This document shows, in pieces, positions 13,001 through 16,412 of a stretch of DNA of 64,000 nt. Under the pieces are notes generated by a model. That model saw only the letters and a program-made list of their open reading frames with translations. It had not been told where the DNA came from and did not search any database. The DNA is from Tubiluchus corallicola (lineage: Eukaryota > Animalia > Priapulida): contig JAQGDQ010000340.1 in NCBI GenBank assembly GCA_030141605.1, forward strand, positions 124,001 to 188,000, read 5' to 3'. Every line of letters begins with the position of its first letter. Position 1 is the first letter of the stretch. Both the position numbers and the translations under genes were made by a program.

Positions 13001-16000
13001 AATCGAGTCGACTTCAGACAACAAACAACCAGAAACAACAAACAGCACGCATAACCGATTGCCAGTGATAACCGAATACAGCTTTAATAGGCACGTAATA
13101 GAGAAGTCCATACTACTTCAAGGCTATTGAGTTACATATTTAGCAAAATTGTGTTGAGTTAAAGGACAAGAATACTCACTTCATGAATAGAGCTTGGAAA
13201 ATTCATTTTGAAATTTTGTATGATGCCTTCTTGCGCATGTTGTTTGTATTAGAAGTAAATCTGTATAAAATTTGAAAGTTGAGACTCCCCAAATGACCGT
13301 TAGGCGCCACCCTTTTAGGAGTAAGTCGTTTGAAACAAATTTAGATAACATTGCATAAAGATTGAAAAAATAGTCAAGGCATTCGTAGCACACACTTTGC
13401 TAATTATGCGAAAGTTAAAAATACTTTATATTGTCAATAAGATCAACAATGCGTTTTTTGTTAGCCAATGGTGCACACTGGGATTGCATTGCTGTGACGT
13501 TTTACCAGTTAACATGAACTCTTCTGTTTCCAATTACATAAGCATTTCACACAGGTAAGTGTACTGCTAAGTAAAAACGTTGTCGGGTGAGTTTTTGGAA
13601 TACTCTTGCGGGATTTTTCTTCCAGTTTAAACTTGTGGGAATACTTGAAAGAAACGAGGCAAGGAATAATGCGACATTCTATGAAGACCACACCTACCTG
13701 TTAAATGAAAGTTGGAAGACCACACCTACCTGTTAAATGAAAGTTGGAATGCCAGAGAATAGCTTCTGCAAGAGCTGAGACATTTCTCTCAATCTTAAAC
13801 TTCAAACGTTTCCTCATGTGCACAGGAAGTTCGTCAACTGAAAGAGTGAAAAGAAACCTCAGAAAAGCCGTTTTAAGCATATTACATTACATAGTCAAAA
13901 GAACAAAGGTCAATGTCAGGAGTAAACATCGCATATTGCGAGACCAAAAGGTCAAAGTCAAAGATAAAGATGGTATTTGAGATTTATACGTCTGTCTATA
14001 GGAAATATATCTCAAAACTAAAAAATCGAAAATTACTCAAATTTCGCAAACTTAATTTGTTTTTAATGGATACTGGGATTAAGTTTAAATGGTAAAAATT
14101 TTAATAGAAGAAGAGGGAGAATAAGACTTAATTAAAGTTTTAGGTGTTGGATGAAATTGAACCGTTTATATATGTATAATTGTACATGACACCTAGTTGA
14201 GTCAAGTTGCTGCTGACAAGTTGCTGTTTTAATAATGAGCAACCTTCTTAACTCGAGAAATTACCTAATTCAGGTCACATGAGTATTCAACTATGATAGT
14301 TACTTTTGTGCAGCATTTCTGGAGCAGCAAAACGTAAAAGCTTGATACATTAATGCTCAGCAAACTTTGACTTGCACTCTTTAAAGTCACTGTCAGCAGT
14401 GGTCGCTCGTGTATAGGTACTGTGGTGCTGTAGCACCCCCTGTTTTCACTTATTATTATCGATAATATTCAATAATCTTTTTCTTTAGTTCTTTGTTCTT
14501 TACACTTGTATGTATCCAGAGCTTGTCAGGGTAGTACTGTTTGCTTCACAGCTCAAGCAACATGGTGTTTGGCTGCTGTGCGCATGCGGCCATGCGCAGG
14601 GCCTATTTCAGCCTAAGCAAGGCCCGTGGAAGTGGGACGTGTGAGGCCCCTCAGGGTTGGGGGTCTTGGGCGCCACCATGGTTGTCGCCCAGAAAATTTT
14701 TGAACTGCTAGAACGCCGGAGAAGCATTTTCGAAGGGAAAATATGGAGTTATGCAGTTGTTAAAGGAAAGAACAATTGAAAGAAAAACTGCTTTATTCTC
14801 AAGACCAGTCCTTAATACTTGTCAAATAGTCCAATCAAAAACAACATCTTTGCAATAAGTAATACCGTACTCTCACTTCCGTACAAGCCATCTTCTGACT
14901 TTTTGTTTCACAAAGTTATCAATTACCTCGGCGCGAGGCCCCCTGGAGGGTGAGGCCCCGGGGAAGTATCCCCACTTCCTCCCCCTGAAATAAGCCCTGG
15001 CCATGCGCACAAGTCTGATATAGGACGCTGTACTTTAGGTAGAAAGAGTACTGTCATATTCATGTTGGCATATTATTGAACTGCGACAATTTAGGCTATT
15101 CGCAAAAAACAAAATTTTTCGTTTAGGAGTTTATCAAGGTTATGTTTAAATTAGTTTGTTTGTTTAAAATTGCAATTAAAACATTATAATTGCATATGTT
15201 GTTTCGTTTTACACAGTATTAAAACAATGGCTAAAAAATTGCAGCACCCCCACTAATTTTAACTACGCGCCGCCACTGCCTGTCAGTAAAAATGATAGAT
15301 TCCTGCAACTATGCTGCTCAGACAATAATATGAACAATTTTACCTATTTCACCAGGTAAAGCGAAGTTGATTACAGGTGTGACATTGGAGAAGAGACTGG
15401 GGGTAAGTGCTGGAATTCTTCTCGGACATACGTCTGCCAGTGAAGAATTGTTCGACTGATGAGAGCAAAGGTCTTTCCATATTTCTGAAATCAAATTTAT
15501 TCTATGAATTAATTCAAATTTACAAAAAGAAAAAGTCATCAAATGTTTCTAAGAAATAACACTAATTGTCATATATATATATCAGATTCAATTACAGGAT
15601 GATCATTATAGATATTACAAATCTCACCCGTTTCATAATAGATTCATTTGGGAATAAAGTATTACAAATTGTAGTATAAATACTTGTGATTTTCAGTAGA
15701 TTAAACATTTATTATCAAAACAACACAACTTTTAATAAAAAAACTTTAATTTACAACTATTTAAAAACATGTCCAAACTTTTCGATAACAAACAGCTGTC
15801 ATCACCAGTGGTACACTGTACAAACAAAAATCGGTCTATATAGGCAGAGCCTACAGTATACAAAAATTATGCACTAATTACGTATTTACAAAGAAGACAA
15901 AGTAATGAATAAACAGACATGCAGAAAAGAAATAGCTACAGTAACAAATAGCTAAGTGTTTGAAAATAAAGTTAATGGAATCGAACTACTTTGTACATTA

Positions 16001-16412
16001 AGAGAATTCTTATTAGTGTACATAGATAAACTTCCTTTCTCAATAAGTCCCAGTTATTTGTAGCTTTGGTTACAATACTGAAATTATTAAAATTAGCTTT
16101 GTGCCCAAATATGGTCATTAATGGTAGATTGAAAGAATTTTTAATTTTCTTGGCAGTTCTGGACGAGATACTCAAATGTTCACATATTCTTACTTTAAAG
16201 TGTCTGGATATTTTAAGCTGCTACAACGAAATCCGTAAACAATATTAGACAGTAAGAATGTATGTATTTCAAAATATACGTGTATATAAACTTGAATATA
16301 ATAAAATAACTACTTGTTTCTAAACTAAAACAACTGCTTACTACATACCTGTATTTCCAACCAGGTGGAAAACTGCAGTTAGAACAAAAACCACACACAA
16401 GCAGGAATTCAT
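1091..16412 (-). CDS. TTLL4: TTLL4-like tubulin-tyrosine-ligase-family (ATP-grasp) enzyme, divergent paralog with a putative N-terminal signal peptide; 14 coding exons, 584 aa
   Basis: Exons 5'->3': 16412-16349, 15484-15344, 13837-13730, 12263-12178, 9879-9694, 8309-8230, 8089-7961, 6073-5951, 5793-5695, 5266-5135, 3744-3607, 2727-2607, 2509-2299, 1227-1091. All introns are GT-AG, phases are consistent and the total is 1755 nt. Motifs [93 protein letters not shown] and [21 protein letters not shown] follow TTLL4 in order. Exon 1 is less certain than the core. Confidence 0.9.
1540..1795. repeat. Diverged ~37-bp minisatellite
   Basis: The core aactatactactcaagagtgac recurs in about 7 degenerate copies. 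Confidence 0.7.
2117..2292. repeat. Compound microsatellite (GGT)n(TTG)n(TTA)n
   Basis: Seen directly; abuts the donor of TTLL exon 13. Confidence 0.95.
4098..4452. mobile_element. Possible degenerate piggyBac-like MITE
   Basis: TTAA at both ends with imperfect inverted termini (cccctttccctgctggtac / gtaccccctgggacggcg). Confidence 0.35.
6243..6810. repeat. 40-bp minisatellite, about 14 diverged copies; more degenerate copies at about 7370-7600
   Basis: Unit ccagaaaccaaacgaaggattggtctttctctgtctaatc. Confidence 0.85.
8540..9505. mobile_element. Penelope-like element 3' fragments in inverted arrangement (about 8540-8990 minus, 9165-9505 plus)
   Basis: The minus strand encodes [30 protein letters not shown], resembling the PLE GIY-YIG endonuclease C-terminus. 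A 3' region with a hammerhead-like core follows. The two halves are reverse complements over about 340 bp. Confidence 0.75.
10130..10440. repeat. Interspersed element with a duplicated internal unit
   Basis: The motif caaatgaaagg(c/t)ctc(g/a)atgagacaaa occurs twice, about 140 bp apart. Confidence 0.5.
10640..11835. mobile_element. Two adjacent copies of a TTAA-flanked, Kolobok-like non-autonomous family (K1)
   Basis: Shared blocks (aaagcttaaaaatcgtcttgaaa, gtggtgcacac, ttacataagtctttcaagcaggtaa) also occur at about 376, 822, 13159, 30327, 34192, 45582 and 60362. The best-preserved copies have ttaaag...ctttaa termini. Confidence 0.6.
12365..12990. repeat. 21-bp minisatellite with an 84-bp higher-order unit
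   Basis: Monomer atgaaaaatgcacaacaaaaa; a four-monomer variant pattern repeats about 4 times. Confidence 0.92.
13159..13630. mobile_element. K1 Kolobok-like MITE copy
   Basis: Starts ttaaaggacaagaatac, ends near ttccagtttaa, and is homologous to the other K1 copies. Confidence 0.6.
14397..15278. mobile_element. hAT-like MITE carrying a nested insertion
   Basis: Termini cagtggtcgctcg / cgcgccgccactg with near-identical 8-bp flanks (actgtcag / cctgtcag). A second copy lies at 39259-39855. Confidence 0.8.
14597..14999. mobile_element. Nested hAT-like MITE
   Basis: TIR cagggcctatttcag / ctgaaataagccctg (14/15 match) and a perfect 8-bp TSD, GCCATGCG. Confidence 0.9.
15710..16260 (-). mobile_element. 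Penelope-like element 3' fragment in TTLL intron 1
   Basis: Close copy of about 8540-8880. It encodes the frameshifted [22 protein letters not shown], resembling the PLE endonuclease end. Confidence 0.72.

Follow-up and report, generated by a model that had tools for sequence, protein, structure and literature searches.

Has an enzyme of the TTLL4 subfamily entered the secretory pathway of Tubiluchus corallicola, and if so, what would it do there? The question is raised by a gene on the minus strand of a 64,000-nucleotide (nt) window of this species (JAQGDQ010000340.1; all coordinates are positions within this window), in which a short predicted exon encoding a hydrophobic, signal-like segment lies upstream of the body of a TTLL4-type ligase. 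TTLL ligases are known for writing the tubulin code, in the cytosol and the nucleus. The reading put forward here, tentatively, is that the product would be a lumenal ATP-grasp ligase with a donor other than glutamate, derived from a TTLL4 duplicate with a predicted signal exon.

The gene runs from 16412 to 1091 and consists of 14 exons, all joined at GT-AG introns whose phases agree, which together give 1755 nt of stop-free coding sequence and a model protein of 584 amino acids (aa); the window has a GC content of about 36% and belongs to an intron-rich animal genome. Three single exons match PF03133 (TTL), with 33.7, 57.9 and 46.3 bits against the Pfam cut-off of 20.1. The best matches of the model are canonical TTLL4 proteins, the alignment spanning residues 46–564, and it is 35% identical to fly TTLL4 (P0003) over residues 35–557. 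As proposed in the initial annotation, exon 1 joins the exon that starts EIWKDLC in phase, by a phase-1 junction to the acceptor at 15484 that leaves the 584-aa chain open, and the SLF.NV.P motif lies some 30 aa past the start of exon 2, as SLFSNVTP at residues 51–58. The protein shares with the TTLL4 monoglutamylase (initiase) the TTL domain, this motif and the C-terminal helical region, with a core identity of about 40%. Measured against one canonical reference protein, canonical TTLL4s reach about 60% identity and the model 40%; unlike them, the model has a hydrophobic first exon, a less basic loop and no ASARG loop.

Homologs were collected with phmmer, using the protein P0001 (best 150 of 10611), and with a word search (best 120 of 516). 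Those listed are mostly canonical TTLL4 and TTLL5-like proteins, and a search with exon 5 gave two candidates, neither of them significant. A tree, suggested in the initial annotation, was built from the model and 41 homologs hand-picked from those fetched, including four outgroup rows of our choosing. It places the model inside the 38-row TTLL4-like ingroup, with a Shimodaira-Hasegawa-like approximate likelihood ratio test (SH-aLRT) support of 99 against the four outgroup rows, and makes P0001 its sister (SH-aLRT 100), with a long branch of 0.68 for the stem and a further 0.8. A 148-row FastTree recovers the same sisters at 0.999. P0001 is a Logan protein of 465 aa, 43% identical to the model, which shares 38 of 166 rare residues of the model; its predicted fold, from a 68-row alignment, has a predicted local distance difference test score (pLDDT) of 85 and a Foldseek match to TTLL6 (E 2e-24), and the sister, confidently folded, thus keeps the TTLL fold. 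No further member of the clade, and hence no ortholog of full length, was found among the best 150 of 10611 and the best 120 of 516 matches. Judged from the tree grouping and from the conserved N- and C-terminal regions of TTLL4, the gene is a descendant of TTLL4, and the best reading is that it is an intact, fast-evolved duplicate, its exact position within the TTLL4-like group being loosely placed.

The first exon encodes 21 residues and one further base, and ends in CAG followed by gtatgt. When scored with a matrix made from the 12 other donors of the gene (range 4.8–10.6), the donor at 16349 reaches 10.6, the highest of the 254 GT sites in the interval 15500–18810, which is bounded by the end of the next gene; the runner-up scores 7.0. 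It is also the sole candidate in this interval with an ATG 14–40 codons upstream in an open frame, and at a score of 10.6 neither strand of the window holds another phase-1 candidate with such a frame. Lowering the score to at least 7.8 gives 121 donors on both strands, three of them with an ATG-open frame: exon 1 itself and two that sit in coding exons, namely exon 3 of this gene and an exon of an amino-acid permease. In 2000 simulated regions of 3.3 kb, generated by a third-order Markov model trained on local non-repeat DNA including exon 1, the loosest donor cut-off yielded 9 candidates with an 11-residue hydropathy of at least 3.0, and the observed score yielded one. In the actual window, 19 of the 67 candidates found at the loosest cut-off are of this kind, for which simple GT-rich repeats are the likely source. 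The signal of the neighbouring gene (19241) was considered as a source of the first exon and rejected, as no phase-1 donor there passed the cut-off.

Because exon 2 follows a clear acceptor and lacks a methionine, the model requires a phase-1 exon further upstream, or else a translation start within the intron, and the in-frame TAA blocks any extension of the frame 5' of the ATG. Both the strong phase-1 donor and this stop codon had been pointed out at the outset, and the donor has withstood the comparison with other GT sites. The first-exon observation is thus real, in the sense that chance is an improbable source of it; transcription of exon 1 and its splicing to 15484 are predicted.

Exon 1 encodes the most hydrophobic stretch of the whole protein at four window sizes, with a hydropathy of 3.05 over residues 5–15, and the simple -3/-1 rule fits after G19 and T21. 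The stretch is some 15 residues long, including one histidine; no basic residue precedes it, and the residues that follow are net acidic. Under the positive-inside rule such a charge pattern favours a lumenal C-terminus. Residues 4–18 would then be a signal peptide, possibly cleaved after G19 or T21, or a short type II signal anchor, and we consider entry into the endoplasmic reticulum (ER) likely. The 7–8 N-glycosylation sequons amount to a mildly raised density of 1.32 per 100 aa, equalled in 10 of 214 homologs, and are of little help on a lumenal location.

The initial annotation had inferred that a signal peptide replaced the long N-terminal extension of TTLL4. Shortness of the N-terminus is in itself ordinary, because 21 of the 167 homologs with a PSLF-type motif have it within about 60 residues of their start; the unusual trait is therefore not length but the hydrophobic start. 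A hydropathy of at least 2.5 in the first 35 residues is found in 2 of 268 proteins, and in one of the 167 that reach the N-terminal motif. That one is XP_013397583.1 (P0112) of Lingula anatina, with a hydropathy of 2.91. P0174 (2.60) was discarded since its sequence begins inside the conserved region, as was P0059 of Denticeps (2.35), which begins with V and lacks an internal segment.

The Lingula protein is a divergent TTLL4 of 599 aa, with a divergent active-site loop that lacks ASARG; a partial paralog is present in the same species (XP_013398235.1, P0150), both having been automatically named TTLL4, and the pair forms its own group in the 42-row tree (support 99). XP_013397583.1 resembles the model in its length of around 600 aa, signal-like start, T at position 362 (TTLL6 numbering, as throughout for active-site positions), short C-terminus and loss of R180, where it has G. 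It differs from the model in keeping R241 and K377 and in having a longer stalk, and the core identity of the two is 35%. Its single-sequence fold gave a pLDDT of 33 and no usable structure. Two motifs exclusive to the model and Lingula (2 of 293 each) were chosen post hoc from the alignment and are not counted toward orthology; the two signal-like TTLL4s may share one origin or have arisen separately. It is worth adding that P0074, P0109, P0141, P0155 and P0120 are further divergent TTLL4 paralogs without the ASARG loop, some also without K283 or K377, and that none of those whose start is present has a hydrophobic one; the group of P0074 includes bees. Repurposed TTLL4 copies seem, from such sequences, to recur in invertebrates.

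The active site was compared across 265 aligned homologs, with residue roles taken from a TTLL6 study (bioRxiv 10.1101/2020.06.07.139295). All eight ATP and metal residues (K125, K174, R219, T263, N264, D346, E359 and N361) are kept in the model, as is the equivalent of K283 (K305). At positions 180, 241, 362 and 377 it departs from canonical TTLL4s, with E, K, T and N respectively. Position 180 (E200) is R in 164 homologs, Q in 59 and E in 3, and position 362 (T380) is I in TTLL4-type initiases. Position 377 was placed by its distance from the conserved Asn that follows the donor-pocket loop, which is shortened and holds R388; it is K in 196 of the 207 rows that were parsed out of 267. The sister P0001 likewise lacks K377, having F there and a loop six residues short; unlike the model, it keeps R180 and R241. 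The net charge of residues 194–222 is +2, against a mean of +7.0 (standard deviation 1.4, minimum +3) in 106 canonical TTLL4s; this is one of three regions tried, the other two being within the canonical range.

K283 and K377 are invariant in glutamylases, absent from glycylases and TTL, and essential in TTLL6, and mutation of R241, which contacts phosphate and the donor alpha-carboxylate, abolishes TTLL6 activity (bioRxiv 2020.06.07.139295). The exchange of R241 for lysine is conservative and keeps the charge. Judged by its residues, the protein has neither R180 and I362 of a TTLL4-type glutamate initiase nor the complete lysine pair of a glutamylase; it is unlikely to be a glutamylase, and its activity may be weak or absent. 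With R180 and K377 lost and R241 changed to K, glutamylation should not be assumed. The initial proposal of a TTLL4-like enzyme with a signal exon is thus supported in part, at the level of sequence, where the statistics above and the Lingula example speak for it.

Known relatives offer partial parallels. TTL and the glycylases TTLL3/8/10 are also TTL-family ligases short of donor-binding lysines: they lack both and add a residue other than glutamate (bioRxiv 2020.06.07.139295), while the model lacks K377 only. They form separate subfamilies, are cytosolic and have tubulin as their substrate. The concept of a secreted TTL-type ligase has a precedent in CPED1 (C7orf58), which PMC2824669 presents as a predicted secreted TTL-like ATP-grasp amino-acid ligase of animals. 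CPED1 is fused to cadherin-like and PC-esterase domains, whereas the protein described here is the TTLL4 body alone, since the alignment of residues 46–564 of 584 to TTLL4 leaves no room for such domains; CPED1 is absent from the homolog matches listed (best 150 of 10611 and best 120 of 516). The initial annotation knew of no description of secreted ligation for the TTLL4 subfamily, and no publication on a signal-bearing TTLL4 was found in a full-text literature search whose coverage excludes most subscription journals; the concept itself is not new, having been predicted for CPED1 (PMC2824669). Insect and nematode TTLL15 models may start with a hydrophobic segment, which could lower the novelty; the part of PMC5051658 available makes no mention of one.

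On the basis of these observations, we hypothesise that exon 1 is spliced onto exon 2 and that residues 4–18 direct the enzyme into the ER. ATP (adenosine triphosphate) is present in the ER lumen, where kinases such as Fam20C use it. The protein would keep the ATP-grasp chemistry of the TTLLs, in which an acyl-phosphate on the acceptor carboxylate is attacked by an amine (bioRxiv 2020.06.07.139295), and would couple a secreted target, through one of its carboxyl groups, to an amine or to an amino acid that is not glutamate. Loss of K377 would remove one of the two lysines that grip the side chain of the donor glutamate, and so change the donor; E at 180 and the less basic loop would disfavour an acidic tubulin tail, and so change the acceptor. 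Glutamate is hence an improbable donor and tubulin an improbable acceptor. If the protein does enter the ER, catalytic activity is somewhat more probable than its absence, and the tentative standing of the lumenal ligase as a whole is the product of these two judgements.

A number of observations weigh against this lumenal ligase. Position 241 is R in 259 of the 265 homologs, K in 2 and F in 4, so that K260 of the model is a rare state at a critical residue. Sequon density is low in P0001 (0.65) and in the Lingula protein (0.20). P0001 is cut at its 5' end, and the sole sister can therefore not confirm the signal. The model, P0001 and the two Lingula proteins come together in the best tree at a support of 51, and the Lingula protein shares 18 of 194 rare residues with the model, no more than unrelated divergent TTLL4s do (20/198 and 21/190). 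Further points, on both sides, come from a diverged copy in run X1, which behaves as DNA (repeats reach depths in the thousands, and none of the listed joints at exon ends skips an intron). A second run, X2, presumed to be RNA, gave no match on exons 1–3, which has no bearing on expression. A 619-nt contig of this run matches 16273–16425 with 12 differences and no gaps, the match stopping 13 nt above the ATG. The nine that are listed comprise seven exonic and two intronic ones, and the donor is intact; seven changes in the 64 nt of exon 1 against two in the 76 nt of intron covered mean that exon 1 has no visible conservation at the DNA level over its flank. The remaining three of the 12, near the ends of the match and possibly near the ATG, are unlisted. 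By manual mapping the list implies C28 to S in one contig, which counts against a conserved stalk disulfide. The changes in exon 1 are V7L, V8F, V18N and N20S plus two silent codons, V7L and V8F being the two within the hydrophobic region. The reading frame stays open and the core hydrophobic, which fits a signal peptide and lends it weak support. Summed depth in X1 over exon 3 (35–81, against 11–25 in several other bins) might reflect extra copies, contig depth being a measure that cannot establish copy number.

The 5' end may have been modelled wrongly, which would leave a cytosolic protein, starting at an intronic ATG (15539), at M76, or behind a 24-nt micro-exon (16372–16349) fed by a distant exon, in which case the T/G-rich DNA read as a signal would be the end of an intron. 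There is indeed an ATG-bearing open frame at 15539 that crosses the 3' end of intron 1 into exon 2 (hydropathy 1.1), an AG at 16373 has the required phase, the X1 changes at 16391 and 16394 raise the T content there, and short non-hydrophobic N-termini are frequent among TTLL4 paralogs (21/167). However, the acceptor at 16373 has a score of 1.8, whereas each of the 13 true acceptors scores higher (3.3–9.5, leave-one-out), and a start at M76, in exon 3, would throw away the conserved exon 2. From 15484 up to the next gene, exon 1 is the sole ATG-open phase-1 exon whose donor passes the cut-off, three weak candidates are found beyond that gene (21487–23224), and the strong 16349 donor and the 15484 acceptor would need another explanation. 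We regard such an error as unlikely, though not negligible.

A slightly smaller weight, still on the unlikely side, falls to a pseudoenzyme, in which the signal is real and the secreted or lumenal protein has slight ligase activity at most, and serves to bind nucleotide or a partner. The combination of K at 241, E at 180 and N at 377 and the long branch speak for it; TTLL6 drops to background without R241 or K377 (bioRxiv 2020.06.07.139295), and the CPED1 proteins of teleosts and molluscs are predicted to lack activity (PMC2824669). Set against this are the eight retained ATP and metal residues, the charge kept by lysine at 241, the presence of R241 in P0001 and the Lingula protein, and the activity of glycylases and TTL without K283 and K377 (bioRxiv 2020.06.07.139295). 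Lastly, the segment could be a reverse signal anchor that tethers the enzyme facing the cytosol, as the missing basic n-region would allow, or the protein could be an active glutamylase in which R388, within the shortened loop, replaces K377, with K283 kept and K present at 377 in Lingula. The short, histidine-containing stretch followed by acidic rather than basic residues, and the F at 377 and six-residue loop deletion of P0001, make either variant highly improbable. The lumenal ligase with a changed donor remains the reading that we prefer.

Features of the TTLL4-like gene (positions within the window)
Feature	Position	Strand	Remarks
In-frame TAA	16455..16457	-	14 codons 5' of ATG
Exon 1 (predicted)	16349..16412	-	64 nt; Met and uncharged hydrophobic segment (residues 4-18); phase-1 donor
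Exon 2	15344..15484	-	Short stalk and TTLL4-type SLFSNVTP motif; no Met inside
Exon 3	13730..13837	-	Spliced model and alignment
Exon 4	12178..12263	-	Spliced model and alignment
Exon 5	9694..9879	-	TTL domain start; K125/K174 equivalents K144/K194; PF03133 E 3e-08
Exon 6	8230..8309	-	Phosphate-binding loop; E200 at R/Q180 position
Exon 7	7961..8089	-	R219 equivalent R238 kept; R241 position K260; PF03133 E 1.3e-15
Exon 8	5951..6073	-	HLTN motif (T263, N264); K283 equivalent K305
Exon 9	5695..5793	-	Spliced model and alignment
Exon 10	5135..5266	-	Metal ligands D346, E359, N361 kept; T at position 362; PF03133 E 4.4e-12
Exon 11	3607..3744	-	Donor-pocket loop 3 residues short; K377 position N392
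Exon 12	2607..2727	-	Spliced model and alignment
Exon 13	2299..2509	-	TTLL4-type C-terminal helical region; 72% identity with P0001
Exon 14	1091..1227	-	CxxCxxCxxC tail, then stop codon

The end of exon 14 and part of its 3' flank (1095–1175) are duplicated about 480 nt downstream, at 611–691, with 81% identity. The copy encodes a similar cysteine-bearing tail, for which no in-phase open acceptor was found by eye, and the unit is in part similar to repeats within introns, at 10677 and 11354. Directly upstream of the gene, an open reading frame (ORF) of 123 aa (19241–18870, minus strand) begins just past an acceptor-like AG. Its start is signal-like (hydropathy 2.6), it contains seven cysteines, and its C-terminus is hydrophobic in the manner of a glycosylphosphatidylinositol (GPI) signal. 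It matched no Pfam family, and its nearest Atlas cluster, a mollusc group at 0.85, is a lead only. Further along, a DUF229 (PF02995) coding exon of 627 aa (28367–26484, minus strand, E 1.8e-129) has its final codons and stop overlapped by the first copy of a satellite at 25076–26516 (22.5 copies of a 64-nt unit, 96% matches). This unit contains GGTTCGAATCCC, which we take to be a tRNA T-loop-like motif. The plus strand carries a multi-exon amino-acid permease (AA_permease_2) at about 38800–55000, presumably SLC7-like, and an ORF with an LRAT domain at 60863–61426 (PF04970, E 4.4e-21).

Should the protein prove inactive or its first exon wrongly modelled, the gene is an ordinary divergent paralog. 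A more far-reaching picture, which we regard as doubtful, is that TTLL4 moved into the secretory pathway at least once and perhaps twice, in this lineage and in Lingula, with a changed donor pocket, so that secreted matrix proteins would receive ligated amino acids or isopeptide cross-links in an undescribed ATP-dependent modification. A role in biomineral formation was considered and is unsupported: the parts covered, the PMC13425148 main text and one PMC4595640 supplement file, contain no term for TTL. A lumenal TTLL, if true, would mean side-chain amino-acid ligation on secreted proteins, so far a prediction only, made for CPED1 (PMC2824669). The single-domain build of the protein and its closeness to solved TTLL6 structures, unlike CPED1, would make donor and acceptor directly screenable, and the Lingula protein offers a named, accessible second candidate.

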